From: Polyangia bacterium
GTDB lineage: Bacteria; Myxococcota_A; Polyangia; JACRCY01
Reading direction: 5' to 3'
Assembly: GCA_036504295.1 (NCBI GenBank)
Contig: DASXVK010000198.1
Coordinates: forward strand, 1,581-65,580
Length of the DNA stretch: 64,000 bases
The notes under the pieces are model-generated. The model saw only the letters and a program-made list of their open reading frames with translations. It was not told the DNA's origin and searched no databases. Made by a program: the position numbers and the translations under genes. This document shows positions 3,187 to 35,772 of this stretch, in pieces. Position 1 is the first letter of the stretch, and each line of letters opens with the position of its first letter.

Positions 3187-4296
3187 TCACGTCCGCAGCA
3201 CCGCCACCAGATCGCGCACCGCCTCGGGGTCCTCGCGCCGCGGCCGCTCCCCCGCGCGGAGGAGGTCGACGAGCTCGCGGGCGCGGCAGTCGGCGGTGTG
3301 CTCGGCCAGCACGCGCTCGCGTCCCGCCGCGCCGATCCGCGCCAGCTCGTGCGCCGGCAGGGCCAGCGCGTCACAGACCTCGGCGGTCGTGCGCGCGACC
3401 AGGATCTCCTCGCCCGGCACGAAGAAGGCCTCGAGCCACGGCCACGGCTCAGAGAGCACGGGCACGCCGCAGGCGGCGGTCTCGAGCAGCTCGGGCGAAG
3501 GGCAGAACCCCAGCGCCCCGATCGCGCCGCGCGTGACGTGCAGCGAGAGGCGCGCCGAGCAGGAGAACGCGGCGAAGTCGGCCCGCCGGACGCGCTCGTA
3601 CGCGACGTTGCCCGGCACGGTGGGGTCCGTGGCCGGCGCGGGGCCGCCGATCAGGAACCGGTGCTGCGGGAGCCGCAGCGCCGCGGCGAAGCAGAGGGGC
3701 TCCAGCGCGCGTGCGTCCTGCGGCCCGGCGGGCACGAGGCACGCCAGGTCGGCGCGGAAGCGCGGATCGGCCGGCACCGGGCGATGCTCGTCCGGGTCCA
3801 CCCACGGGTACAGCGGCGCCACCCGCCGCGCCCCCAGGCGGGACCGGAGCCGCTCGAGCGCCTCGCCGCCGGTGACGCTGAGCACGAGGTCGAACCGCGG
3901 CAGCGCGAGGCTCCGCACGAAGCTCGTCTGCCGCGCCCCGGCCTGCCGCAGGGTCGCCGCCGTGTCCAGGTCGTAGAACACGCGGCGGGGCGCGCGCGAT
4001 TCGAGGAGCGCCTCCGCGGCCGGGAGCCCATCGGGGCACTGCGAGGTCACGATGCCGGCGTCGGCCCGCGCGAGCTCCCGGCGCGCGGCGGGGAGCGCCT
4101 CGTCCCAGCTCTCGTACGGCCGGAGGTCGCAGCCCGGGATGGGCCGGAGGTCGCGGGCGCCGGAGCCGACGCGGCGCTCGAAGAACGTGACCCGGTGCCC
4201 GAGCTGCCCCAGCGCGCGGCCGAGCGCGCGCCACGCCTCCGGGCGGGTGTCACCCCGCGCCGGACTGATCGGCGCCCCGAAGACGACCAGCTTCAT
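3187..4296 (-). CDS. Glycosyltransferase (CgeB-like / GT1-type C-terminal domain)
   Basis: 369 aa: MKLVVFGAPIS...GHRVTFFERR...LETAACGVPVLSEPWPWLEAFFVPGEEILVA. This layout is typical of CgeB-family glycosyltransferases. Confidence 0.75.
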   Translation of the reverse strand: MKLVVFGAPISPARGDTRPEAWRALGRALGQLGHRVTFFERRVGSGARDLRPIPGCDLRPYESWDEALPAARRELARADAGIVTSQCPDGLPAAEALLESRAPRRVFYDLDTAATLRQAGARQTSFVRSLALPRFDLVLSVTGGEALERLRSRLGARRVAPLYPWVDPDEHRPVPADPRFRADLACLVPAGPQDARALEPLCFAAALRLPQHRFLIGGPAPATDPTVPGNVAYERVRRADFAAFSCSARLSLHVTRGAIGALGFCPSPELLETAACGVPVLSEPWPWLEAFFVPGEEILVARTTAEVCDALALPAHELARIGAAGRERVLAEHTADCRARELVDLLRAGERPRREDPEAVRDLVAVLRT

Positions 4297-4395
4297 GCGC
4301 CATGGGATGCAGGGGGCGCATGCGCCCTACCAGGTTTCTGCGCCACGCGCACGGCCCCGGAGCGCGCGCACCACCACTGGACCGCGAGGACGCCG

Positions 4396-5007
4396 CTACT
4401 CCTCGTCGGCCTCGGGCTCCGGCGGGAGCCAGAGCAGCGACAGGTCGAGCTCGACAGCGTCGAACGGCTCCGCGCGCACGCGCACGTCGCCGGCGTGGGT
4501 GGCGCAGAGCAGCCACCCGGCGGCCTCGAGCCGATAGACCTCGAGCGTGCGGGCGTCGGGAGAGATGAGCCAGACGTGACCCACCTTGGCGCGGGCATAG
4601 AGCGGCAGCTTGACGGCGCGATCCTCGGCCTCGGTGGACAGCGAGAGGACCTCGCAGATCCAGTCGGGGACCACCGTCAGCGGCCCCTTCCGCGGTGGCG
4701 TGCCCCAGCGCTCCTTGCGCCAGCCGCCCAGGTCCGGGACGCGGATCTCCTCGCCGAAGCGGATGCGCGGCTCGTCCCGGATGATCCAGCCGCCGGGGCC
4801 GCCGATGCCCAAGCGGAACGGCGCGCCCAGCAGGACGCCCAGGTCCGAGGTCGCGTGGGCGTGAGGCTCGTCGGGCCGCGGGGTGACGACGATCTCGCCG
4901 GCCACGATCTCGCCGACGTAGCCCTCCGGGACCCCCTCCAGGTCGTCCCAGGTGGCGGGCCGGCCTCGTGGGCGGGCGGGGAATCTCGGGTGCCGGGACA
5001 TCACCAC
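4396..5007 (-). CDS. Uma2-family (DUF820) putative endonuclease
   Basis: 203 aa with the family layout GEIVAGEIVVTP.P...H...PDLGGWRKER...PDWICEVLS.ST...D...K...YA...V.H.W...P....EVY. Confidence 0.85.
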   Translation of the reverse strand: MVMSRHPRFPARPRGRPATWDDLEGVPEGYVGEIVAGEIVVTPRPDEPHAHATSDLGVLLGAPFRLGIGGPGGWIIRDEPRIRFGEEIRVPDLGGWRKERWGTPPRKGPLTVVPDWICEVLSLSTEAEDRAVKLPLYARAKVGHVWLISPDARTLEVYRLEAAGWLLCATHAGDVRVRAEPFDAVELDLSLLWLPPEPEADEE

Positions 5008-5042
5008 TACTGTAGAGCGCCCGACGGGGCGTCACAAGGTGG

Positions 5043-7385
5043 CTACCGCCGCTCGTGCAGCCCGGCGAGGATCTTCTCGGGGAGGAAGGGCGAGCGCAGC
5101 AGGCGCACGCCGACGGCGTCGTAGATGGCGTTCGAGAGCGCCGGCAGCGGGCCGTTGATGCTGATCTCGGACACGCTCTTCGCGCCGTACGGGCCGGTGG
5201 GCTCGTAGGAGGGCACGAGGATGGTCACCATCTCGGGCAGGTCCCGCGTCGACCAGATCTTGTAGTGCCGGAAGCTCGGGTTGCGGCAGCGGCCGTGGTG
5301 GTCGAAGATCATCTCCTCGGTGAGCGCGTAGCTGAGGCCGTTGAGCACCGCGCCCTCGGTCTGGCCCTCGGCGAGCCGCGGGTTGATCGCGGTGCCGCAG
5401 TCGACCGCGGCGACGTACTTCACCACGCGGCAGAGGCCGGTCTCGCTGTCGACCTCGACCTCGGCGAAGTGCGCGGCGAAGGGCGGGGGCGACGCGCTGG
5501 TGATGTGCGAGGCGTGGCTCGCGATCTGGTGCTGGTCGGTCTCGTAGAGCGTGCGCAGCCCGATCTGCGCGAACGACACCGTGCGCCCGTCCGGCGCGAC
5601 GACGTGCCGGTCGACGGTGGCGAGCGTCGCGGCGTCGCCCGGCGGCAGGCCGAGCACCTCGGCGCCGACCTGCAGGATCTGCTCGCGCACGAGCACCGCC
5701 GCCTTGCGCACCGCCTCGCCCGAGAGGTACGTCGTCGACGAGGCATACGCGCCGACGTCGAACGGCGTGAGATCGGTGTCCGACGAGTACGTGATGACGT
5801 GATCGAGCGGCACCCCGAGCGCCTCGGCCGCGATCTGGGCGAGCACGGTGTCCGACCCGGTGCCGAGGTCGGTGGCGCCGACGAGCAGGTTGAAGGAGCC
5901 GTCGTCGTTCATCTTCAGCGACGCGGCGCCCATGTCGATCTGGGGGATGGACGAGCCCTGCATCAGCGCGCACATGCCGACGCCGCGCCGGTAGCGGCCC
6001 GTCTCCTTCCGCCCGACGCCGCGCTTCGCCGTCCAGCCGATGGCCTCGGCCCCGGCGGTGAGGCACGCGTCGAGCTCGCAGGAGCCGATCTTCTGCTCGA
6101 CGCCCGCCGTGCCCTCGCCGAGCGCGCGGAAGACCGCCGAGCCCTGGCCCTCGCGGACGTGGATCTTGCGCCGGAGCTCGACCGGGTCCAGGCCGAGCTT
6201 CTCCGCCGCCATGTCCATCGCGATCTCGACGGCGAAGGCGGCCTGGGTGGCGCCGTAGCCGCGGTAGGCGCCGCCCACCGGCAGGTTCGTGTACACCGAG
6301 TCGGCGCGGAAGCCGACGTTCGGGCACGGGTAGAGCGGCAGGGTCTTCGAGCCGCAGTTGCAGGCCACGGTGAGCGCGTGCGACCCGTACGCCCCGGTGT
6401 TCGTGAGCACGTCGAGATCGAGGGCCGTCGGCGTGCCGTCCTGCGCCAGGCCGAGGCGGAAGCGCACGCGGCCCGGGTGGCGCGTCCGCGCGGAGACGAA
6501 CTCCTCGTCGCGGGTGTACTCGTGCTTCACCGGCCGCCCGCTGCGCAGGCACAGCATCGCGACGAGGTCCTCGAGCACCTCCTGCTTGGCGCCGAACCCG
6601 CCGCCGATGCGCGGCTTGATGACGCGGATCTTGCGCACCGGCACGCCGCAGGACTGGGCGACGATGCGGCGGACGTGGAACGGCACCTGGGTGGAGGTGC
6701 GGATGACGAGACGGTTCCGCTCGTCGAGCCAGCAGATGGTGACGTGCGGCTCGATCGGCGTGTGCTGGCCGTACTGGGTGACGGTGGTGACGTCGACGGT
6801 GACCGCGGCCCCCTCGAGGCCCTCCTCGGGGTCGCCGATCTGCATGTCGACGTGGCCGGCGAGGTTGCGCGCCGGGTCGTAGGGCACCGGGATGATGGCC
6901 CTGCAGTCGGGCTCGTCGTGGATGACTGGCGCCCCCGGGTCCATCGCCCGCTCGAAATCGAGGACCGCGGGCAGCTCCTCGTACTCGACCTTGATGAGGC
7001 GCACGGCCTGCTCGGCGATGGCGCGCGTCTCGGCGGCCACCGCCGCCACGCGGTCGCCGACGTAGCGCACCTTGCGGTCGAGCATCGGCGTGTCGTACGG
7101 CGACGGCTCGGGGAAGCCCTGGCCGGCGGTGGTGTGCAGGTTGCGCGGCACGTCCTCGTGGGTGAGGACGCAGACGACGCCGGGCAGCGCGCGGGCGCGG
7201 CTCGCGTCGATGCGCGTGATGCGGGCGTGGGCGATCGGGCTCCACAGGAACTTCGCGTGGAGGAGGCCGGGGATCTGCAGGTCGTCGACGAAGACCGGAG
7301 CCCCGGCGGCGAGGCCGAGGGCGTCGACCTTGCGCTCGCTCGTGGCGACCGTCGTGAAGGGCGGCCCGGCGTGCTTCTGGCTCAT
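5043..7385 (-). CDS. Xanthine dehydrogenase-family molybdopterin-binding large subunit
   Basis: The internal ATG at 7385 (MSQKHAGPPFTTVATSERKVDALGLAAGAPVFVDD) overlaps the stop of the FeS subunit gene (ATGA). Family motifs include GGGFGAKQ, GAYRGYGATQ and the C-terminal PYGAKSVSEISINGP. The upstream 120 aa of the track ORF are Arg-rich junk. Confidence 0.9.
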   Translation of the reverse strand: MSQKHAGPPFTTVATSERKVDALGLAAGAPVFVDDLQIPGLLHAKFLWSPIAHARITRIDASRARALPGVVCVLTHEDVPRNLHTTAGQGFPEPSPYDTPMLDRKVRYVGDRVAAVAAETRAIAEQAVRLIKVEYEELPAVLDFERAMDPGAPVIHDEPDCRAIIPVPYDPARNLAGHVDMQIGDPEEGLEGAAVTVDVTTVTQYGQHTPIEPHVTICWLDERNRLVIRTSTQVPFHVRRIVAQSCGVPVRKIRVIKPRIGGGFGAKQEVLEDLVAMLCLRSGRPVKHEYTRDEEFVSARTRHPGRVRFRLGLAQDGTPTALDLDVLTNTGAYGSHALTVACNCGSKTLPLYPCPNVGFRADSVYTNLPVGGAYRGYGATQAAFAVEIAMDMAAEKLGLDPVELRRKIHVREGQGSAVFRALGEGTAGVEQKIGSCELDACLTAGAEAIGWTAKRGVGRKETGRYRRGVGMCALMQGSSIPQIDMGAASLKMNDDGSFNLLVGATDLGTGSDTVLAQIAAEALGVPLDHVITYSSDTDLTPFDVGAYASSTTYLSGEAVRKAAVLVREQILQVGAEVLGLPPGDAATLATVDRHVVAPDGRTVSFAQIGLRTLYETDQHQIASHASHITSASPPPFAAHFAEVEVDSETGLCRVVKYVAAVDCGTAINPRLAEGQTEGAVLNGLSYALTEEMIFDHHGRCRNPSFRHYKIWSTRDLPEMVTILVPSYEPTGPYGAKSVSEISINGPLPALSNAIYDAVGVRLLRSPFLPEKILAGLHERR

Positions 7386-7879
7386 GGCTGCCTCGCGTCG
7401 TCGGGCGTCTTCGTCCCGGCGGCGCGCAGCACCGCGGCGGCGCGCAGGACGGCCTCGATCTGCTTGACGTACCCGGTGCACCGGCACAGGTGCCCGTCGA
7501 GCGCCGCCTTCACCTCCGCCTCCGTCGGCGCGGGGTTCTCGTCGAGCAGCGCCTTGGCCGACAGGAGCATGCCCGGCGTGCAGAAGCCGCACTGCACCGC
7601 GCCCGCGTCGGCGAAGGCGAGCTGCAGCGGGTGCGGCTGGTCGACGGTGCCGAGCGCCTCGACGGTGGTCACGGCGCGGCCCTCCGCCTGGGCGGCGAAG
7701 AGCAGGCACGACTCGACGGGCACGCCGTCGAGGAGGACGGTGCACGCGCCGCAGTCGCCGGTCTCGCAGCCGCGCTTGACGCTGAGGCAGCCGGCATCGC
7801 GCAGGACGTCGATGAGGAGGTCGCGGGCGGCGATCTCGATCGCGCGGGCCGCGCCGTTGATGGTCACGTGGAGCTTCAT
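7382..7879 (-). CDS. (2Fe-2S)-binding small subunit of the molybdenum hydroxylase
   Basis: MKLHVTINGAARAIE...RGCETGDCGACTVLLDG...SCL...QCGFCTPGM...CRCTGY. These are the classic two-cluster motifs. Its ATG overlaps the FAD-subunit stop. Confidence 0.9.
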   Translation of the reverse strand: MKLHVTINGAARAIEIAARDLLIDVLRDAGCLSVKRGCETGDCGACTVLLDGVPVESCLLFAAQAEGRAVTTVEALGTVDQPHPLQLAFADAGAVQCGFCTPGMLLSAKALLDENPAPTEAEVKAALDGHLCRCTGYVKQIEAVLRAAAVLRAAGTKTPDDARQP

Positions 7880-8760
7880 TGCGGCCTCGCGGTGGCGCCC
7901 GCGACGGCGCCCGTGGCCCGGGCCACGGCGGCTTCGAGCGCGCGCCGGACGAGCACCTCCGCCAGCTCGCGGCGGTACTCGCGGGTGGTGCGGTAGTCGC
8001 TGGCGATCTGCGCCTCGTCGCGGCCCGCGCGGGCCGCCACGGCGAACGCGGCCGCGCCGGCCTCCTTGCCGAGCAGCGCCGACTCGGCGGTCTTGAGGCG
8101 CTGGGGCAGGGGCCGCAGCGCGCCGACCGCGATGCGGACCGCGCAGATCTCGCGGCCGCGCAGCTCGACGTAGGCCGCGGCGTCGCACAGCGCGCAGTCG
8201 ACGGCGGTGCGGCCGAACTTGACGAACGCCGACCCGGCCTCGGCCGGGGCGCGCGGCACCAGGACCTCCGTGAGGATCTCCGCCGAGCCGATGAGCTTCG
8301 ACGGGTGCCGGACGAAGAGCTCGGCGGCGGCGACGTCGCGCGTGCGGCTGACGCCCCGCACGCGGCAGGTCGCGCCCAGCGCGAGCAGCATCGGCGGCAG
8401 GTCGGCCCAGGGCACCACGCCGACGACGTTCCCGCCCACGGTGATCTGGTTCTGCAGCAGGCGCGAGCCGGCCGCGCCCGCGGCCTCGGCGAGGCCGGCG
8501 AGCCCCGCCTCGACCACCGCGCGCGAGCGCGCCACCTGGCGGGCGGTCGCCATCGCCCCCAGGCGCAGGTTGCCGCCGGAGAGCGAGATCGTGTTCAGGC
8601 CGGTGCGCGACAGGTCGACGAGCGCCTGGACCTTCGGGTCCGCGAGGAACACGAGGCTCGTGCCGCCCGCGAGCGGCCGGGCGCGGCCGCCGCCCTCGGC
8701 GAGCAGCGCCAGCGCCTCCTCGACCGAGCGGGGGTGATGGACATCAGCGAGGTTCCTCAT
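7876..8760 (-). CDS. FAD-binding subunit of the molybdenum hydroxylase (CoxM/XdhB-like)
   Basis: 294 aa: HHPRSVEEALALL...PLAGGTSL...NQITVGGNV...SDYRTTREYRRELA. Confidence 0.9.
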   Translation of the reverse strand: MRNLADVHHPRSVEEALALLAEGGGRARPLAGGTSLVFLADPKVQALVDLSRTGLNTISLSGGNLRLGAMATARQVARSRAVVEAGLAGLAEAAGAAGSRLLQNQITVGGNVVGVVPWADLPPMLLALGATCRVRGVSRTRDVAAAELFVRHPSKLIGSAEILTEVLVPRAPAEAGSAFVKFGRTAVDCALCDAAAYVELRGREICAVRIAVGALRPLPQRLKTAESALLGKEAGAAAFAVAARAGRDEAQIASDYRTTREYRRELAEVLVRRALEAAVARATGAVAGATARPQ

Positions 8761-26471: not shown

Positions 26472-28160
<1,689 letters not shown>

Positions 28161-28221
28161 TGTCCCCCATTATTGCGCGAAGGGGCGACCGCACGCAACG
28201 CAACGAAACGCCGGGGGTTCT

Positions 28222-28255
28222 GGGGCATATGCCCCACCGTTGCGGCATATGTCGC
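28222..28255. promoter_or_regulatory. Two palindromic GGCATATG(C/T)C sites; candidate enhancer (UAS) for the downstream sigma-54 promoter
   Basis: GGGGCATATGCCCC (28222-28235) is a perfect 14-bp palindrome. GCGGCATATGTCGC (28242-28255) lies 20 bp away centre to centre. Both are about 90-110 bp upstream of the -24/-12 element. Confidence 0.35.
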
Positions 28256-28328
28256 ACCTGAGTGGCGCCGCGGGTGGCAGGGATCCGTGATCTATGCTCA
28301 ACTTTCCAGGAGTTGGGCGCCTCGGGAC

Positions 28329-28344
28329 CGGCACTGTTCTTGCT
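28329..28344 (+). promoter_or_regulatory. Sigma-54 (-24/-12) promoter upstream of the histidine kinase/EBP operon
   Basis: cGGCACtgttcTTGCt. GG and GC are separated by exactly 10 nt, matching TGGCAC-N5-TTGCW at all but the first base. It lies 24 nt upstream of the first possible start of the kinase ORF. Confidence 0.6.
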
Positions 28345-28367
28345 AGAGCCGGGACCGGAGGCGATCG

Positions 28368-29990
28368 GTGACGTCCATTGGGGACGCGACATACGAAGCG
28401 GCGACGCCCGTCGAGGCGGCCGGCGGGGACGCCGGGCCGACCGCCGGCGCGTGCCTCGCGAGGCCGCCGATGGGTCGCCTGAGCCAGCACCTCGGGCACC
28501 GGCTCATCGTCAGCCTGCGGACCCGCTTCCTCATCGGCGTCCTCGCGACCGGCGCGCTCGCCCTGGGCGGCACCGCCCTCTTCGCCGGCCGCAGCGCCCG
28601 CAACGACGTCGAGTCGCTCGCGCGCGACCGCGGCCGCGTCATCGCGAACTCGGTGTCGGCGAACCTCTCGTCGATGATGGTGCACGGCAGCGGGCACCAG
28701 ATGCAGCTCTTCCTGTCGAGCGTGAAGCAGAACGCGCTCGTCTCCGACGTGCACATCTTCAGCCGCAAGGGCGTGGTCCTCGCCTCCTCGGCGGGCGGCG
28801 TGGGCCAGCCGACGAACCCGCGGCACTTCGCGCTCACGCGCGAGGGGCGCATGGCGGCGACGACCGAGGAGGGCCCGCACGGGACGAACATGGTCTTCGT
28901 GCAGGAGATCGAGAACGGCCCCTTCTGCCGCAACTGCCACGGGCAGGAGGAGTCGCCGATCGGCTACCTCGACGTCTCGGTCCCCCTCGACCGCTACGAG
29001 CGCCACGTACGCACGACGCTCGTGCGCAGCGGCGTCCTCAACGGCATCGCCCTCGTGCTCCTCATCCTCGGCAGCAGCCTGGTCGTGTCGGTGCTGGTGC
29101 TGCGGCCGGTGGCGCGCCTCGCCCAGGCGGTGCGGCGCACCGCCGACGGCGACCTCGACGTCCGGGTGCCGGTCGAGCGCGAGGACGAGCTCGGCCGCCT
29201 CGCGAAGGACTTCAACGCGATGGCGGAGAAGCTGCGGGGCGCCCAGGAGCAGGTCCAGCAGTCGCACCACGAGAACATGGAGCGCGCCGAGCGCATGGCG
29301 TCGCTCGGCGAGCTCGCCGCCAGCCTCGCGCACGAGGTCCGCAACCCGCTCGGCGGCCTCTCCGGCGCGGTCCAGGTCCTCGCCGAGCACTTCGCCGACG
29401 ACCCCAAGCACCGCGAGGTCGTCGAGGAGATGGGCAGCCTGATCCAGCGGCTCGACAAGGCGGTGAACGACCTGCTGTCGTTCGCGCGGCCGTCCCGCCC
29501 GTCGCTCAAGCTGCTCGACCTCAACGTGAGCGTCGGCGAGGTCGTGTCGCTCATGCGCAAGCACGCCGCCCGCAGCAAGGTCGAGGTCGTCTTCCACCCC
29601 TGCACCGACCACGGCTACGTGTTTGCCGACGGCGACCAGGTCCGGCACGTCTGGGTCAACCTCATCCTCAACGCGTACCAGGCGATGCCGGCGGGCGGCA
29701 CGCTCGACGTGCGCGTGGCGGTCGCCGGCGACGGCGTGCAGGTCTCCTTCCTCGACACGGGCACCGGCATCCCGGAGGACCTGCGGGAGAAGATCTTCCG
29801 GCCGTTCTTCACGACGAAGCACACCGGCACCGGCCTCGGCCTGGCGATCTGCGACCGCATCGTGCGCGATCATGGCGGCGACATCGAGGTCGTCAGCTCG
29901 CCCGGCGAGGGCACCTGCTTCACCGTGACGCTCCCGCGCCGGGGCGCGATCGTGCATCGCGCCGCCGACGGGGGCGGGAGCGCGCCGTGA
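28368..29990 (+). CDS. Sensor histidine kinase with a periplasmic CxxCH (heme c-type) motif, HAMP, HisKA and HATPase domains
   Basis: Alternative start at ATG 28470 (MGRLSQHLG). TM1 is [21 protein letters not shown]. The periplasmic region of about 170 aa contains FCRNCHG (28926-28940). TM2 is followed by HAMP ([14 protein letters not shown]), the H-box ([10 protein letters not shown]), the N-box (NLILNAYQA) and the G-boxes (DTGTGI, GTGLGL). Confidence 0.85.
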
Positions 29991-31399
29991 CGGACGTCCT
30001 GCCGGCCATGACCATGACCACGCCCGCGCCCAAGCCCGAGCCCGCCGCGAGGCCCCCGGGGCGCCTGGCGCGGGTGCTGGTGATCGACGACGAGCGCCTC
30101 ATCCGCTGGTCCTTCAAGGAGAAGCTCGAGCGCGAGGGCTACGAGGTCGCCACCGCGGCGAGCGCCGAGGAGGGGCTCGCGGTGATCGAGCGGGAGCGGC
30201 CCGACGTCGTCTTCCTCGACGTGCGCCTGCCGGGCATGTCGGGCCTCGACGCCCTCCGGCGGCTGCGCGAGATCGACGACACCTGCGTCGTCATCATGAT
30301 GACCGCCTACGCCTCGGTCGACGACGCCGTGCTGGCGATGAAGCAGGGCGCGCAGGACTTCATCAAGAAGCCCTTCGACCTCCTGGAGGTGGAGGCGCTG
30401 CTGCGCAAGACCGCCGAGTCGGCGCGCCTGCGCCGCGAGGTCGAGCGCCTGCGCTGGGAGACCGGCCGCAACCCGCTCGTCGGCCGCTCGCGCCCGGTGC
30501 GCAAGCTGCTCGAGCTCAGCGCCTCGGTGCAGCACTCGGACACGACCATCCTCATCGAGGGCGAGAGCGGCAGCGGCAAGGGCCTGCTCGCGCGCGTCAT
30601 CCACGACTCCAGCTCCCGCGCCAGCGGCCCACTCGTCGAGGTGAATTGCACCTCGATCCCCCACACCCTCGTCGAGAGCGAGCTGATGGGGCACGAGCGC
30701 GGCGCCTTCACCGACGCCCGCACGACGAAGCGCGGGCTCCACGAGCTGGCCGACGGCGGCACCCTCGTCCTCGACGAGATCGGCGAGATCCCGCTGCACG
30801 TCCAGGTCAAGCTGCTGCGCTGCCTCGAGGACAAGCGGTTCCGGCGCGTCGGCGGCCTGCGCGACCTCGAGGTGGACGTCCGCGTCGTGGCGATCACGAA
30901 CCGCGACCTCAAGCTGGCCGTCGCCGAGGGGCGCTTCCGCGAGGATCTCTACTTCCGCCTGAAGGTCTTCCCGCTGTACCTGCCGCCGCTGCGGCAGCGC
31001 CGCGAGGACATCCCGCTGCTCGCCGCCCATTTCGTCGAGCAGATGAACGCGCGCTTCTCCAAGGCCCTCACGGGCGTGTCGGCGGCGGCGCTGCAGCTCA
31101 TGCTGGCGTACGACTGGCCGGGGAACGTCCGCGAGCTGCGCAACCTGATCGAGCGCGCGGTCCTCCTGGCGCACGAGACGGAGATCCTGCCGTCCCACCT
31201 CGGCCCGGAGCTGCACGCGGCGCACGGGGCGGACAAGCAGGACGGCGCCGGCGGCGGCCTGGCGCTCGCCCCGGTGGAGAAGAAGCTCATCCAGGAGGCG
31301 CTCGCCGCCTGCGACGGCAACCAGGTGCGCGCCGCCCGCATGCTGCACGTGTCGCGCGACACGCTGCGCTACCGGATGAAGAAGCACGGCCTGATGTGA
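29987..31399 (+). CDS. NtrC-family sigma-54-dependent response regulator (REC-AAA+-HTH)
   Basis: GTG 29987 overlaps the kinase stop (GTGA); ATG 30008 is an alternative start. Receiver VLVIDDE...FLDVRLPGMSG...KKPF. AAA+ motifs GESGSGKG, GAFTDA, ELADGGTLVLDEIGE and WPGNVRELRN. C-terminal Fis-type HTH (AARMLHVSRDTLRYRMKKHGL). Confidence 0.9.
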   Translation: MTDVLPAMTMTTPAPKPEPAARPPGRLARVLVIDDERLIRWSFKEKLEREGYEVATAASAEEGLAVIERERPDVVFLDVRLPGMSGLDALRRLREIDDTCVVIMMTAYASVDDAVLAMKQGAQDFIKKPFDLLEVEALLRKTAESARLRREVERLRWETGRNPLVGRSRPVRKLLELSASVQHSDTTILIEGESGSGKGLLARVIHDSSSRASGPLVEVNCTSIPHTLVESELMGHERGAFTDARTTKRGLHELADGGTLVLDEIGEIPLHVQVKLLRCLEDKRFRRVGGLRDLEVDVRVVAITNRDLKLAVAEGRFREDLYFRLKVFPLYLPPLRQRREDIPLLAAHFVEQMNARFSKALTGVSAAALQLMLAYDWPGNVRELRNLIERAVLLAHETEILPSHLGPELHAAHGADKQDGAGGGLALAPVEKKLIQEALAACDGNQVRAARMLHVSRDTLRYRMKKHGLM

Positions 31400-31530
31400 G
31401 CCGGCCGGCCTCTGGGTGAAATCCCCCATCCTGTGGCGTTTCGCTCACGGCGTTTGCAGGACCGCCACACTCGGGCGCGGCGCGGTGGCGATCTTCGCGG
31501 GGTTGGATGGGGCCGGGCCGCCTCCGGACG

Positions 31531-31546
31531 AGGCACGGCGATTGCA
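31531..31546 (+). promoter_or_regulatory. Sigma-54 (-24/-12) promoter upstream of the diheme cytochrome gene
   Basis: aGGCACggcgaTTGCA, with correct GG-N10-GC spacing. It lies 85 nt upstream of ATG 31630, which has a GAGGAGAG Shine-Dalgarno sequence. Confidence 0.65.
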
Positions 31547-31629
31547 AACACGCTGAGCTGACGGTGGGGGTAACGGCCCAGGCGCGAGCTCGTGGGCACG
31601 CAGCGGACCTGAGAACGAGGAGAGAACCA

Positions 31630-31881
31630 ATGAAGAAATGGCTGATTGCCGGCATCACGATGGTCACCTTCGCCATGGGCGGCGCCGCGCTCGCGACCAA
31701 GGACATGGGCGCTGACGTCGGGGTCAAGAGCTGCAAGACCTGCCACGAGGGCTCCCCGAAGGACAAGAAGCTGACGCCCAAGATGGCGGGGCACCTCAAG
31801 GACTGCAAGGCCAAGCAGCCCAGCGAGACCTGCAAGAGCTGCCACGCGGGCGCCTCCAAGGGCACCAAGAAGTGCAAGTAG
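31630..31881 (+). CDS. Small secreted Lys-rich diheme c-type cytochrome
   Basis: 83 aa. Signal peptide MKKWLIAGITMVTFAMGGAALA. Two CxxCH motifs: CKTCH at 31732-31746 and CKSCH at 31831-31845. The composition recalls c3/c7-type mini-cytochromes. Confidence 0.8.
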   Translation: MKKWLIAGITMVTFAMGGAALATKDMGADVGVKSCKTCHEGSPKDKKLTPKMAGHLKDCKAKQPSETCKSCHAGASKGTKKCK

Positions 31882-31913
31882 TCTAGCCGGTAGCACGATC
31901 CCGTCGACGGCCT

Positions 31914-31952
31914 GGTCGGCTCCTTCCGCCTCCTCGGAGGCGAAGGACCGGC
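31914..31952 (+). terminator. Imperfect long hairpin immediately after the cytochrome gene (candidate terminator)
   Basis: GGTCGGCTCCTTCCGCCTCC-tc-GGAGGCGAAGGACCGGCC with a few bulges, followed by a GTTTGACTTTCT tract. Confidence 0.45.
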
Positions 31953-31973
31953 CGGGCCGTTTGACTTTCTAGC

Positions 31974-31998
31974 AAAGGGACCCTGGGAGGGTCCCTTT
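31974..31998. other. Perfect 11-bp inverted repeat (AAAGGGACCCT-ggg-AGGGTCCCTTT)
   Basis: Read directly from the sequence. It could be a second terminator or a protein-binding palindrome. Confidence 0.5.
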
Positions 31999-32012
31999 GA
32001 CCCCCCGCGCAG

Positions 32013-32041
32013 AGTGCTGGCAGGCAAAGCCCGCCAGCACT
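32013..32041. other. 13-bp inverted repeat with one mismatch (AGTGCTGGCAGGC-aaa-GCCCGCCAGCACT)
   Basis: Read directly from the sequence, 33 nt upstream of the second EBP gene. Confidence 0.45.
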
Positions 32042-32073
32042 CACGCGACAGTCCGCTCTGGCGCCACGCCTGA

Positions 32074-33510
32074 ATGGCGATACAATCCGCCGCGAGCGGC
32101 TCTCGCCGCCTGAGCGTGAACGGCATGGTCGAGGGCACGCGCGCCATCCGCGTCCTCGTAATCGACGACGAAAAGCTCATCCGCTGGTCCTTCCAGGAGA
32201 AGCTCGCCCCCGAGGGGTACGAGGTGCTCACGGCGGGAACCGCGGAGGAGGGGCTCGCGCTCGTCGAGCGCGAGGGGCCCGACCTCGTGTTCCTCGACAT
32301 CCGGCTGCCGGGCATGAACGGCCTGGAGGCCCTGCGCAAGCTGCGCGCGATCGACGACACCTGCACGGTGATCATGATCACCGCCTACGCGACGGTCGAT
32401 GACGCGGTCGAGGCGATGAAGCAGGGCGCGCGCGACTTCATCAAGAAGCCCTTCGATCTCAACGAGGTGCGCGCGCTCCTCGCCAAGGTGGTCGAGGACA
32501 TCAACCTGCGCCGCGAGGTCGACCGCCTGCGCCGCCGGCGCGGCGAGCCCGAGGGCCTCGGGTCGGTCATCGGCCGGGCGCCGACGCTGCGCTCCATCCT
32601 CGACATGGCCGAGACGCTGGCGCGGTCGGAGACCACCACCGTCCTCATCGAGGGGGAGAGCGGCACCGGCAAGGGCCTGCTCGCGCGCGCGCTGCACCAC
32701 CAGAGCGCCCGAGCCCAGGCGCCGCTCATCGAGATCAACTGCACGTCGCTCCCCGAGAACCTCGTCGAGAGCGAGATCATGGGGCACGAGCGCGGCGCCT
32801 TCACCGACGCCCACTCGACCAAGCGCGGGCTCCTCGAGCTGGCCGACGGCGGCACCGTGGTGCTCGACGAGATCGGTGAGATCCCGCTCGCCGTCCAGGT
32901 CAAGCTGCTGCGCTGCATCGAGGAGAAGCGGTTCCGGCGCGTCGGCGGCCTGCGCGACTTCGAGGTCGACGTCCGCATCATCGCGACCACGAACCGCGAC
33001 CTCAAGGGCGCGGTGGCGGCGGGCCGCTTCCGCGAGGACCTGTACTTCCGGCTCAAGGTCTTCCCGCTGCTGCTCCCGTCGCTGCGGCAGCGGCGCGAGG
33101 ACATCCCGCTCCTCTCGGCCCACTTCGTCGAGCAGATGAACCAGCGGTTCACGAAGTCGCTCAAGGGCATCTCGCCCGCGGCGCTGCAGCTCATGCTCTC
33201 CTACGAGTGGCCCGGCAACGTCCGCGAGCTGCGCAACGTCATCGAACGCGGCGTGCTCCTCGCCCAGGGCGACCAGATCCTGCCGACGCACCTGCCGGCC
33301 GAGCTGCAGCAGCACGCGCAGGACGCGGCCGCCGACGGGCACGGCCAGACCATGAGCCTGCCGCCCGGCGGCGTGGCGCTGGCGGACGTCGAGCGGCGTC
33401 TCATCGAGGAGGCGCTCACGGCCGCCCAGGGGAACCAGGTGCGGGCCGCGAAGATGCTCAAGATCAGCCGCGACACGCTCCGTTACCGGATGAAGAAGTT
33501 CGGCCTGTAA
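32074..33510 (+). CDS. Second NtrC-family sigma-54-dependent response regulator (paralog of 29987-31399)
   Basis: 478 aa; alternative start at 32125. It is collinear with the first EBP: VLVIDDEKLIRWSFQEKL, GESGTGKG, GAFTDA, WPGNVRELRN, AAKMLKISRDTLRYRMKKFGL. Confidence 0.9.
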   Translation: MAIQSAASGSRRLSVNGMVEGTRAIRVLVIDDEKLIRWSFQEKLAPEGYEVLTAGTAEEGLALVEREGPDLVFLDIRLPGMNGLEALRKLRAIDDTCTVIMITAYATVDDAVEAMKQGARDFIKKPFDLNEVRALLAKVVEDINLRREVDRLRRRRGEPEGLGSVIGRAPTLRSILDMAETLARSETTTVLIEGESGTGKGLLARALHHQSARAQAPLIEINCTSLPENLVESEIMGHERGAFTDAHSTKRGLLELADGGTVVLDEIGEIPLAVQVKLLRCIEEKRFRRVGGLRDFEVDVRIIATTNRDLKGAVAAGRFREDLYFRLKVFPLLLPSLRQRREDIPLLSAHFVEQMNQRFTKSLKGISPAALQLMLSYEWPGNVRELRNVIERGVLLAQGDQILPTHLPAELQQHAQDAAADGHGQTMSLPPGGVALADVERRLIEEALTAAQGNQVRAAKMLKISRDTLRYRMKKFGL

Positions 33511-33528
33511 CGGGGACAAGGAGGGGCC

Positions 33529-34017
33529 GTGATGAACCTTTCGACCGTCCGCCTCGACAAGCCCGATGAGGTCAACCTGATCCTCGGCCAGGCGCACTTC
33601 ATCCGCACCGTCGAGGACCTGCACGAGGCCATCGCGACCTCGGTGCCCGGGGCGAAGTTCGGGCTCGCGTTCTGCGAGTCGTCGGGGCCGCGGCTCATCC
33701 GCCACGGCGGCACCGACGCGGCGCTCGAGGACCTGGCGGTGAAGAACCTCCAGGCCGTCGCGGCCGGCCACGTCTTCCTCGTGCTGCTCGGCAACCTCTT
33801 CCCGATCCACTGCCTGCGCGCGATCCGCGAGGTCCCCGAGGTGTGCCGCATCTTCTGCGCCACCGCGAACCCCGTCGAGGTGGTGATCGCCGAGACGGCG
33901 CAGGGCCGCGGCGTGCTCGGCGTCATCGACGGCGGCACGCCGCTCGGGGTGGAGGGGCCGCAGGAGACGGCGCAGCGCACGGCGTTCCTGCGGACGATCG
34001 GGCTGAAGCTGGGGTAG
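33529..34017 (+). CDS. Adenosine-specific-kinase family (PF04008-like) protein
   Basis: 162 aa, starting at GTG 33529 or the adjacent ATG 33532, with an AAGGAGGGG Shine-Dalgarno sequence. EVNLILGQAHFIRTVEDLHEAIATSVPGAKFGLAFCESSG matches my recollection of this family. Confidence 0.6.
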   Translation: MMNLSTVRLDKPDEVNLILGQAHFIRTVEDLHEAIATSVPGAKFGLAFCESSGPRLIRHGGTDAALEDLAVKNLQAVAAGHVFLVLLGNLFPIHCLRAIREVPEVCRIFCATANPVEVVIAETAQGRGVLGVIDGGTPLGVEGPQETAQRTAFLRTIGLKLG

Positions 34018-34099
34018 CACGGCCTCGCGTTGCCCCTCGGTGTGTACGTGGCGGCGGTGCGGTGCTCGCTTGACCGCGTATCTCACTCTCGAGCGAGTG

Positions 34100-34429
34100 A
34101 TGCTCGCGCTGGACGCACGCGACGATCCTGTGGCCGATCACTTACGCGACGCGATGGATCCCATTTGGTATTCGCTCCGCGAAGAGGATCGCGCACAGCT
34201 CGACGCTGGGGTGACCCTGGCGCCTCGAGCAACCTTGGCGCAAGGTGTCGAGCCCAACCTGACGCAGCGGGCTGACGCCGCCGCGGTGCCGCTCGGGCCG
34301 CTGCCCGGCCGCGAGCCCGAGCGCCCCAAGTTTCTTACGGGTTCTCTCGAAGGTCGTCCGCGCGGCGCTGCCGATCGGCGGCCGACCGAAACATGGGCGG
34401 TCATTGCGGGCTTGCCGTTTGCGACCTGA
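34100..34429 (+). CDS. Hypothetical protein (weak)
   Basis: ATG inside track ORF 34040-34429 (MLALDARDDPVADHLRDAMDPIWYSLREEDRAQLD...). It has mixed codon usage in a lower-GC patch and no recognisable motif. Confidence 0.3.
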   Translation: MLALDARDDPVADHLRDAMDPIWYSLREEDRAQLDAGVTLAPRATLAQGVEPNLTQRADAAAVPLGPLPGREPERPKFLTGSLEGRPRGAADRRPTETWAVIAGLPFAT

Positions 34430-34900: not shown

Positions 34901-35772
34901 CTCACCGGCGGTGAGGCGGCCGCGTCCGCATCAAGAGATCCCGCATCCGGAGTGTGGCCTAATCGCACGCGCCGGCTGGGCACCAGGAATGCGGCCAGCG
35001 CGATTGCGGCCCCAAACGCCGTGATCGCGATCCCTGCGGCACTGCCCTCCAGGCCCCACTCGCCGCCGGACCGCCACGGATTGGCATGTCTGGTGAGGTC
35101 CCAGAAGCGAGCGGACGTCAGCAGGGACTGCGTGAAGTTCCACCCCACATGGAGCCCGATCGGCACCAGGATGTTTCGCGATGCCAGCATCGAGTAGCTG
35201 AGGAAGAAGCCCGCCAGGGCCACCGAGGCAATCGCTGCGACCGTCCAGTTCGGGTTGAAGAGGTGCGCCAGGCCGAAGGTAGTCCCGAGGCCAATCGCAG
35301 TGGCATGCGGACCGAGAGCTTTGGCACAGGCAGAAAACGCCCACCCTCGAAACGTGTACTCTTCCCAGGCCGCGTTCAGGACAGTTGCCACGAGCACGGC
35401 AACGAGAGTGCCCGCGAGATCGAGGAGGCCGACAGGTCGCCACCGCACGGCGATCCCGCCAGTCGCCATCACCAGGGCGAATACGACCGTGAAGATCAGA
35501 ATCCCCCCAAGCAAGCCCCCGATCGCGACGCGGGCGCTCATGAGGCCTAGGCTGGGAAGCAGGATCAAGTCGCGGCCATGCATGCTGGGGCGCCGTCTCT
35601 GGGCCAGGACGGTCATCGTGACCACCAGTCCCAGCGCCGCGACGCCGGCCACGGTGCTCCGAACGACAGACTTCTCGCTCAGGAATGACAGGCCCCCCCA
35701 CGCCAGCAGCTTGCAGGCCATGCTCACGCCAACGAAGCCCAGCGCCAAGGCTACGGTCTTCAGGCGCGACAC
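34756..35772 (-). CDS. CPBP-family (Abi/CAAX-type) intramembrane metalloprotease
   Basis: Tentative GTG 35772 start, with 35802 as an alternative. Multiple TM helices. The three family motifs are present: EEYTFRGW, FGLAHL and HVGWNF. The last approx. 50 codons form a low-complexity tail that overlaps the convergent 34442-34900 ORF. Confidence 0.75.
   Translation of the reverse strand: MSRLKTVALALGFVGVSMACKLLAWGGLSFLSEKSVVRSTVAGVAALGLVVTMTVLAQRRRPSMHGRDLILLPSLGLMSARVAIGGLLGGILIFTVVFALVMATGGIAVRWRPVGLLDLAGTLVAVLVATVLNAAWEEYTFRGWAFSACAKALGPHATAIGLGTTFGLAHLFNPNWTVAAIASVALAGFFLSYSMLASRNILVPIGLHVGWNFTQSLLTSARFWDLTRHANPWRSGGEWGLEGSAAGIAITAFGAAIALAAFLVPSRRVRLGHTPDAGSLDADAAASPPVSYGAAEEGGGGTRAGSDPVSSDPRSRTSSGHPVTARVHTSAPTSRHSG

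Follow-up and report, generated by a model that had tools for sequence, protein, structure and literature searches.

A heme-sensor kinase, twin sigma-54 activators and a mini-cytochrome form a conserved module with a predicted dispersed electron-transfer regulon in an uncultured, Myxococcota-like family

How a bacterium chooses among its many multiheme cytochromes is largely unexplained outside a few Geobacter regulators, and the locus described here offers a compact, testable case of this question. In this study, a stretch of 64,000 nucleotides (C198:1581-65580, hereafter the window) of a metagenome-assembled genome (MAG) of a Polyangia bacterium, an uncultured inhabitant of soil, was investigated. 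The genome bin (G000) measures 9.9 Mb in 869 contigs, with 73.7% GC, a completeness of 97% and a contamination of 7.8%. Five genes, all on the plus strand, were observed at 28.2-34.0 kb of the window: a histidine kinase, an enhancer-binding protein (EBP1), an open reading frame (ORF) of 83 aa that encodes a small diheme cytochrome, a second enhancer-binding protein (EBP2) and a gene of family PF04008 (Table 1). The initial annotation had described this locus as a self-contained redox-sensing loop, in which a heme-bearing kinase controls the mini-cytochrome and its own operon. We consider it probable that the kinase and its two activators constitute a conserved two-component/sigma-54 switch of an uncultured, Myxococcota-like family, with a dispersed electron-transfer regulon.

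The order kinase-EBP1-80/83-aa ORF-EBP2-PF04008 was found in at least seven loci, namely the window, L006 (a JGI contig, the cytochrome of which is 71% identical to that of the window), L088, L089, two further JGI contigs, and G001, the sister genome and sole genome of the same family in the reference set, where two contigs share the module between them. Since the C9 site of G001 matches locus L087 letter for letter, this genome is apparently GCA_016218785.1, which bears the label 'Deltaproteobacteria bacterium'. The genes on the left of the module vary between loci and include a Ser/Thr kinase, a HEAT-repeat protein and DUF2304, and the module is therefore taken to begin at the kinase gene. 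No account of this module was found in our literature search.

Both the kinase-EBP1 operon and the cytochrome gene are preceded by exact GGCAC-N5-TTGC elements, 141 nt and approximately 98-99 nt from the respective ATG, as had been proposed for each of them in the initial annotation. This pattern has three matches in the window against 0.41 expected. Promoters and enhancers were aligned over five loci (the window, L006, L089, L088 and L087), in all of which CGGCAC-N5-TTGCT of the kinase promoter is invariant and GG(C/T)A(C/T)-N5-TTGCA of the cytochrome promoter is kept in an otherwise diverged spacer; the mean column identity of the aligned intergenic spacers is 43-63%. The genome also carries rpoN (Sigma54_DBD, 214 bits, on C812). 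The third match (GGCACTCTCGTTGC, 35399-35412, minus strand) was rejected as a promoter, as it lies inside an ORF for a CPBP protease with no enhancer-type site nearby, and it is probably due to chance.

Upstream of each of the two promoters, a tandem enhancer was recognized. Its unit is a 16-bp palindrome-like TGnGnnWWWWnnCnCA, and the starts of a pair are 19-22 bp apart. The sites of the kinase-operon enhancer reach matrix scores of 22.4 and 21.0, making up the best tandem match genome-wide, and those of the cytochrome-gene enhancer reach 21.8 and 16.0. The enhancer blocks are kept in 5/5 loci at each promoter, and none of the ten orthologous copies has lost the outer TGnG...CnCA or the A/T-rich core. 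Activators of the NtrC type classically bind as dimers to two sites that are separated by two helical turns and lie 80-150 bp upstream of the promoter. The earlier claims of autoregulation and of control over the mini-cytochrome are thus backed, at the level of sequence signs, by a conserved -24/-12 element at both genes and a common tandem enhancer. A single extra half-site of the enhancer type (TGGGGGTAACGGCCCA, 31565-31580, score 12.1) was also noticed about 20 nt past the promoter of the cytochrome gene, within what is presumably its 5' leader.

The enhancer is not confined to the module. A symmetrised weight matrix was made from the 20 orthologous half-sites of the two local enhancers, and the whole genome was scanned for tandem pairs. 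Apart from the training sites, five tandem matches were obtained at scores of at least 25 and seven at scores of at least 20, as compared with none at 18 or above in the reversed genome and none at 25 or above in five local shuffles. Strict GGYAY-N5-TTGC elements lie within 300 bp of five of these seven sites, against 0.9% of random positions (binomial p ~1e-9), and a sixth site, that on C222, has the sigma-54-like TGGCACGAGAGTTGAT. The operon on C435 has the sigma-54 promoter TGGCACGGTGCTTGCT in front of it, and the C366 cluster harbors three TGnG-N8-CnCA pairs in its intergenic regions. Along their whole length, the two tetraheme cytochromes of this cluster match PDB 7TFS, the OmcE filament (E 8e-30 and 2e-27). 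A pattern search in the sister genome recovered its two module sites and one more site, upstream of the orthologous 18-heme cytochrome/NHL/tetraheme cluster, with 0 matches when the same genome was read backwards. The target contigs share the GC content of the bin (0.727-0.753), and none of them is among the contigs that carry the 25 best EBP matches. The description of the circuit as self-contained is consequently not supported, since the same enhancer and sigma-54 promoter occur at at least five other loci, before genes for multiheme cytochromes, NHL proteins and a hydrogenase. Judged by these motifs, the module would be the centre from which a sigma-54 regulon for extracytoplasmic electron transfer is controlled.

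Table 1. Features of the module and of its predicted targets. Positions refer to the window unless a contig is named; scores are those of the tandem-pair scan.
Feature	Position	Strand	Description
Ser/Thr kinase gene	26472-28160	-	Divergent from histidine kinase; without transmembrane (TM) helix or PASTA domain
Kinase-operon enhancer (upstream activating sequence, UAS)	28221-28256	.	Sites TGGGGCATATGCCCCA-ccgt-TGCGGCATATGTCGCA, starts 20 bp apart, 109 bp 5' of -24 GG
Sigma-54 -24/-12 element, kinase-EBP1 operon	28329-28344	+	cGGCACtgttcTTGCt; core GGCACTGTTCTTGC at 28330-28343; exact GGCAC-N5-TTGC
Sensor histidine kinase, 506 aa	28470-29990	+	TM1, periplasmic heme-c sCache/PAS-like domain, TM2, HAMP, HisKA, HATPase_c (Pfam)
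EBP1, NtrC-type sigma-54 activator	29987-31399	+	REC, AAA+, HTH_8; GAFTDA loop; GTG overlaps kinase TGA
Cytochrome-gene enhancer (UAS)	31413-31447	.	Sites TGGGTGAAATCCCCCA-tcc-TGTGGCGTTTCGCTCA, starts 19 bp apart, 119 bp 5' of -24 GG
Sigma-54 promoter, cytochrome gene	31531-31546	+	aGGCACggcgaTTGCa; core GGCACGGCGATTGC at 31532-31545; exact GGCAC-N5-TTGC
Secreted Lys-rich diheme c-type cytochrome, 83 aa (~61 aa mature)	31630-31881	+	ORF, motifs
Three consecutive strong RNA hairpins	~31903-31965, 31973-31999, 32006-32047	+	Minimum free energy -106.8 kcal/mol, z -8.7
Promoter-like element CTGGC-N18-TACAAT	32058-32086	+	38 nt before EBP2 start; CTGGC and CGATACAAT invariant in 5/5 loci
EBP2, EBP1 paralogue	32125-33510	+	Same domain set, GAFTDA loop, helix SRDTLRYRMKK; kinase not adjacent
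PF04008 ('adenosine-specific kinase' family) gene	33529-34017	+	Pfam E 3.6e-68
Non-training tandem site	C532:6541		Score 36.7; downstream, MtrC/MtrF-like decaheme lipoprotein (PF22113, 127 bits)
Non-training tandem site	C222:2555		Score 34.3; downstream, cytochrome with at least 17 hemes
Non-training tandem site	C744:11447		Score 31.9; downstream, radical-SAM/SPASM protein
Non-training tandem site	C435:6976		Score 28.2
Operon on C435 (L091)	G000:C435 1088-6731		Second Ser/Thr kinase, 162-aa protein, NiFe-hydrogenase small and large subunits, ferredoxin, Roadblock/LC7 protein
Non-training tandem site	C366:12253		Score 25.6
Non-training tandem site	C852:4041		Score 21.9; downstream, NHL-repeat lipoprotein, after cytochrome with at least 7 hemes
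Non-training tandem site	C366:2464		Score 20.6
Cluster on C366 (L090)	G000:C366 1674-12191		Two tetrahemes, two NHL beta-propeller proteins, 18-heme cytochrome, another with at least 13 hemes

With respect to the sensor, only one CxxCH was detected in the kinase, CRNCH at residue 153, lying between the hydrophobic segments ~20-40 and ~188-212, so that the single heme motif annotated earlier in a loop between two TM helices was recovered. A single-sequence phmmer search of the PDB found only 3B42 (E 0.016), in an alignment that matches up the CxxCH and an MM pair; a profile made from the sensor domains of eight homologous kinases reached 3B42 at E 3.7e-10 and 3B47 at E 1.4e-6, with no other PDB match below E 0.8. 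These are the periplasmic heme-c sensors of the Geobacter sulfurreducens chemoreceptor GSU0935 (3B42) and of GSU0582 (3B47). The AlphaFold2 (AF2) model of the domain (pLDDT 84.9) likewise finds 3B42 first in Foldseek (E 6e-7), and the PDC/Cache sensor domains of DctB, WalK, KinD and CitA come next. The CxxCH of the kinase aligns to CQSCH of 3B42, and C153, C156, H157 and Met70 are invariant across nine kinases, including one from Gemmatimonadota with 29% identity. The kinase sensor is thus homologous to, and a member of, the GSU0935/GSU0582 heme-c sensor family, and the likeness to Geobacter heme sensors to which the initial annotation alluded is borne out by profile and structure. The reading of the kinase as heme-bearing is well supported, and covalent attachment of the heme is predicted from the motif.

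The literature on the Geobacter homologues leaves two kinds of signal in view. In their domains, the oxidised heme is high-spin, and reduction makes it low-spin through a Met60 ligand; both domains bind NO and CO, which displace the Met; and with midpoint potentials (Em) of -156 and -251 mV they were proposed to be redox sensors (PMC8396549). The wider family has been redefined as sCache_heme, an NO-binding Cache input domain of kinases, chemoreceptors and cyclases (PMC12889525). The signal of the kinase in the window could accordingly be redox poise or a gas. As for the gene itself, its annotated start, GTG 28368, was corrected to the conserved ATG 28470 by alignment with L006, and its GTGA coupling to EBP1 was verified, with the kinase TGA at 29988-29990 and the EBP1 GTG at 29987; the same 4-nt overlap is present in L006, L088 and L089.

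A scan of genome contigs with the kinase gave mostly generic HisKA/HATPase relatives from other phyla, and the sensor domain was shared with L008 only. In this Gemmatimonadota MAG, in the region 3737-8104, the gene of the 29%-identical kinase, whose sensor domain is of the same kind (VCVTCH), comes after those of a 486-aa multiheme cytochrome and a b-type cytochrome, and is followed by a stand-alone receiver and not by an EBP. In the genome of the window itself, two kinases (G000:C643 401-1888, minus strand; G000:C772 27377-28840, plus strand) align over nearly the full length of the module kinase, sensor region included, at 31% identity, and may be additional heme-sensor kinases.

The two activators were described as close paralogues in the initial annotation, which agrees with their identity of 70%. 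They are each other's closest paralogue, the next EBP being 49% identical. Both score above the Pfam cut-offs for PF00072, PF00158 (208 and 211 bits), PF25601 and PF02954. Neither could be assigned to an equivalog in NCBIfam, where all equivalog cut-offs were missed and AtoC was best with 441 and 461 bits against a cut-off of 714. The REC domains are 76% identical, with a nearly identical alpha-1 (DDE[RK]LIRWSF[KQ]EKL), and the recognition helix (S/T)RDTLRYRMKK is the same in both proteins; among ten EBP helix-turn-helix (HTH) motifs of the genome caught by a partial pattern, SRDTLRYRMKK is carried by EBP1 and EBP2 only. The two proteins fall into two separate orthologous clades, indicating that the duplication is older than the split of the lineages. 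Both harbor GAFTDA in place of GAFTGA. As GAFTDA or GSFTDA occurs in all eight orthologues, and a loop of this type in 4 of the ~32 EBPs of the genome, we tentatively read the change as a lineage variant rather than a defect. The EBP2 start annotated at 32074 was replaced by the conserved ATG 32125 through alignment of orthologues, as 32074 lies inside a conserved promoter-like element.

The mini-cytochrome lies between the two activator genes as had been described, a secreted Lys-rich protein with a signal peptide and AxA cleavage (ALA|TK), 17 Lys and two CxxCH. Both heme motifs are kept in five orthologues, although one of them, L088 (10098-10343), has CNAKCH, a CX3CH, as its first motif. 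His55 is the only invariant His outside the heme motifs among these five, and Lys24, Lys46 and Lys77 are invariant. The earlier proposal that one heme is His/His and the other His/Met finds no support. The Met of PKMAGH is not conserved, Met52 is V/L/L and Met26 is I/H/T in the orthologues, and one invariant non-motif His is left. With this one spare His for two hemes, one of the hemes may be five-coordinate or ligated by Lys. Cys60 and Cys82 are both present in four of the five sequences and both absent in the fifth (L089), and this covariation suggests a disulfide between them.

The family of the mini-cytochrome is rare. A word search of 5.8 billion clustered proteins gave two matches, and a profile search of 1.84 billion proteins gave 24 representatives at E<=1e-3, most of which are of about 80 aa, Lys-rich and diheme. 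No significant relative was found in the PDB, where the best full-length match is a cytochrome c7 (1KWJ; profile E 0.036, single sequence E 1.4), and the AF2 model is poor (pLDDT 59). Membership in c7/class III was considered and rejected, as the PDB searches gave heme-motif matches and c7 at E 0.036-1.4 only, and the distal His residues do not number one per heme. The C-terminal half presumably resembles PpcA, with equal CxxCH-to-His spacing. A more distant member of the family, L098, adjoins a 608-aa NapC/NirT-type cytochrome and has TGGCCC-N5-TTGC 60 nt before its ATG. The mini-cytochrome would be a soluble periplasmic electron carrier.

The initial annotation placed a hairpin behind the cytochrome gene; a strong fold indeed lies 3' of it, and it consists of three hairpins without a U-tract instead of one. 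Hairpins occur at the same place in L006 and L088, and that of L088 is a canonical terminator, with a stem followed by a T-run. The stretch 31903-32047 is likely a terminator or attenuator region. Behind it stands CTGGC-N18-TACAAT, which looks like a promoter whose -10 is good and whose -35 is unusual. When 28100-34100 was scanned for consensus sigma-70 promoters and terminators, nothing relevant came up, and this element was not called. It was also considered as a sigma-54 promoter and rejected, as there is no conserved GC at -12. We read it as a separate, non-sigma-54 promoter of EBP2 and the PF04008 gene, and partial read-through from the cytochrome promoter into EBP2 is possible. In such an arrangement, it is plausible that EBP2 provides a basal level of activator, while EBP1 is amplified together with the kinase by positive feedback. 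The PF04008 gene is directly 3' of EBP2 in every locus examined, with a gap of 12-278 nt (18 nt in the window); it is probably co-transcribed with EBP2 here, and may belong to the module.

Taken together, we propose that the kinase would read the periplasm through a covalent c-heme in its GSU0935-type sCache/PAS-like domain, the signal being redox poise or a ligand (NO, CO). It would phosphorylate the co-transcribed EBP1 and, probably, also the orphan paralogue EBP2, which would be made with the PF04008 protein from its own non-sigma-54 promoter. Both activators, having the same recognition helix, are predicted to bind the paired 16-bp sites ~80-150 bp upstream of sigma-54 promoters. Their targets would be (i) the kinase-EBP1 operon itself, giving positive feedback; (ii) the monocistronic gene of the 83-aa diheme cytochrome; and (iii) dispersed genes for extracytoplasmic electron transfer, encoding OmcE-like tetrahemes with NHL partners, an MtrC/MtrF-like decaheme lipoprotein and cytochromes of 17-18 hemes, together with the Ser/Thr-kinase and NiFe-hydrogenase operon and the radical-SAM/SPASM gene.

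Several observations weigh against this proposal. The cores of the two local enhancers differ (CATATG vs GAAAT/GTTTC), and therefore the two EBPs might read them differently, while the GAFTDA change could impair contact with sigma-54. The kinase scores 17.9 bits with PF21563, below the Pfam cut-off of 27, for which reason it is regarded as a divergent member of the heme-c sensor family; the precomputed PF21563 matches of its homologues P0006-P0008 are marked weak or faint, and PF11845 gave no match to the window kinase at E<=0.01. The -24/-12 elements are weak or oddly placed at some targets, namely C222 (TTGA at -12), C366:5199 and C366:12253, and the enhancer of the C435 operon is unusually distant, at 245 bp. 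Moreover, the genome is a MAG of 869 contigs with 7.8% contamination, so that the assignment of the target contigs to the same cell rests on GC content and the sister-genome site. Such imperfect promoters and odd spacings at several distant sites would also fit a narrower model, in which the kinase and the EBPs control their own operon and the mini-cytochrome only, the distant pairs belonging to other activators or being fortuitous; the two local promoters alone are physically linked to the EBP genes, and there are about 30 other EBPs in the genome. We nevertheless hold this narrow alternative to be very unlikely. The matrix was trained on orthologous local sites only, and yet it found the five further pairs that are without counterpart in the reversed and shuffled controls; the association with strict sigma-54 elements at five of the seven matches is far beyond chance; the downstream genes follow one theme, of cytochromes, NHL proteins and hydrogenase; one of the sites is also upstream of the orthologous 18-heme gene in the sister genome; and the shared recognition helix was met in no other EBP among the HTH motifs caught.

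That EBP2 shares the kinase, as was suggested at first annotation, is plausible in view of the nearly identical alpha-1 of its REC domain and the identical recognition helix, and the second signal offered there as the other option was kept as a rival. EBP2 might answer a different, unlinked kinase or signal, the paralogues then integrating two inputs at shared enhancers, where they might form mixed hexamers or compete. The conserved promoter-like element that EBP2 has to itself, the missing adjacent kinase, the two clades kept apart since before the lineages split, and the related full-length kinases on C643 and C772 are all in keeping with this, but alpha-1 is the usual carrier of pairing specificity, the REC domains remain as similar as stated, and the two activators are closer to one another than to any other paralogue. 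We regard a separate input as somewhat unlikely. The nature of the signal allows a further variant, in which the same circuit answers NO (or CO) instead of redox poise, the sensor being a gas sensor and the mini-cytochrome binding or scavenging the gas. The NO binding of sCache_heme domains (PMC12889525; 10.64898/2026.05.25.727664), the displacement of Met by NO and CO in GSU0582 and GSU0935 (PMC8396549) and the one invariant non-motif His of the mini-cytochrome, one heme of which could be five-coordinate or Lys-ligated, speak in its favor. However, the predicted targets are hardware for respiratory and extracellular electron transfer plus a hydrogenase, without an NO reductase, flavohaemoglobin or Hcp-type gene among them, and the Geobacter homologues were proposed as redox sensors too (PMC8396549); a dedicated gas response thus appears unlikely to us.

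The mini-cytochrome could, besides being an output, act as an accessory of the sensor, a periplasmic relay that reduces or oxidises the kinase heme and so closes a feedback loop, as ZraP does on ZraS. In every locus its gene is flanked by the regulators, and it stands under the same type of enhancer as the kinase operon, its family is very small and specialised, and the distant Gemmatimonadota kinase with the same sensor is likewise beside cytochrome genes. The poor model of the mini-cytochrome gives little footing for a contact with the sensor, and on the short contig (3.2 kb) of its relative L098 the neighbour is a NapC/NirT-type cytochrome and there is no gene for a regulator, so we rate the accessory role as distinctly unlikely. 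Bolder still, and in our view a very long shot, is a master switch for extracellular electron transfer with one sensor and two activators, in which the mini-cytochrome would be the redox reporter of the sensor, passing electrons back and forth between the heme of the kinase and the pool of cytochromes. If this were true, the cell would be measuring the charge state of its electron conduit and not an external chemical.

In comparison with known systems, the sensor of the window resembles GSU0935/GSU0582 (PDB 3B42, 3B47; PF21563; sCache_heme) in lying between two TM helices, in its PDC/Cache-like fold, in the single CxxCH at the same alignment position and in the conserved Met that aligns with the MM pair of 3B42; it differs from GSU0935 in its output, which passes through HAMP-HisKA-HATPase to sigma-54 activators and not to a chemoreceptor, and the identity is ~19-20%. 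The general design, a heme-sensor kinase and a sigma-54 activator beside cytochrome genes, has partial precedent in the literature, in BccR and sCache_heme. In Geobacter sulfurreducens, cbcBA is switched on by BccR, a sigma-54 response regulator, as the redox potential falls (10.1101/2021.04.15.440034). BccR (GSU0598)-cbcBA and the module have in common an NtrC-type regulator, a sigma-54 promoter of cytochrome genes and the context of redox potential, a comparison of logic and not of orthology. BccR works as one regulator, lies divergent from one target operon and lacks a described heme-sensor kinase, whereas the module combines a pair of paralogous EBPs with a linked heme-sensor kinase, an embedded mini-cytochrome and a predicted regulon of dispersed targets. 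In ZraPSR of Escherichia coli, a kinase and an NtrC-type EBP autoregulate through a sigma-54 promoter, and a second such promoter drives a small periplasmic protein. The module shares with ZraPSR this autoregulated kinase/EBP pair and the sigma-54-driven small periplasmic protein, and the best NCBIfam scores are AtoS/ZraS for the kinase and AtoC/ZraR for the EBPs, below the equivalog cut-offs. Unlike in ZraPSR, the small protein is a diheme cytochrome and not of the ZraP/CpxP fold, the sensor has a heme domain where that of ZraPSR binds metal, the EBPs are two in number, and the genes stand in series rather than divergently. The mini-cytochrome itself is like cytochromes of the c7/PpcA type in being periplasmic and Lys-rich with 60-70 aa in the mature form and closely spaced CxxCH, a similarity that is not significant, and unlike them in having two hemes instead of three, one conserved distal His and an extra, covarying pair of Cys.

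What is specific here is the retained pair of activators with one recognition helix, the embedded mini-cytochrome, and the dispersed set of targets defined by a motif. In this case, structures are known for relatives of the sensor domain, the two activators have one helix in common, and the 16-bp site is defined. Among the predicted targets, in an uncultured lineage of high GC, are a hydrogenase and cytochromes of the nanowire (OmcE-like), MtrC-like and giant types. Two questions are raised: why a duplicated pair of activators has been retained for the same DNA sites, and what purpose is served by a diheme protein of 61 residues that has one His to spare.

On the left of the module, the tail of the divergent Ser/Thr kinase is Pro/Ala-rich and bears, at residues ~366-406, a dyad repeat (K/R)(K/R)RLT(E/D)ELxxLL, a motif that is unique in the genome. 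Both copies are kept in L006 (4809-6485, minus strand) and in the sister genome (L099, G001:C480), while the rest of the tail drifts. Cache_heme-HAMP receptors have been described to bind PASTA-less Ser/Thr kinases via a dyad-repeated C-terminal helix (10.64898/2026.05.25.727664), the sequences of which differ from the repeat in the window. Under the master-switch alternative, the PASTA-less Ser/Thr kinase might dock on the HAMP dimer of the histidine kinase via this conserved repeat. In the sister genome, the orthologue of the Ser/Thr kinase is on another contig, beside an amidohydrolase and not beside the sensor kinase, which weakens the link between the two, so that the repeat is a lead only.

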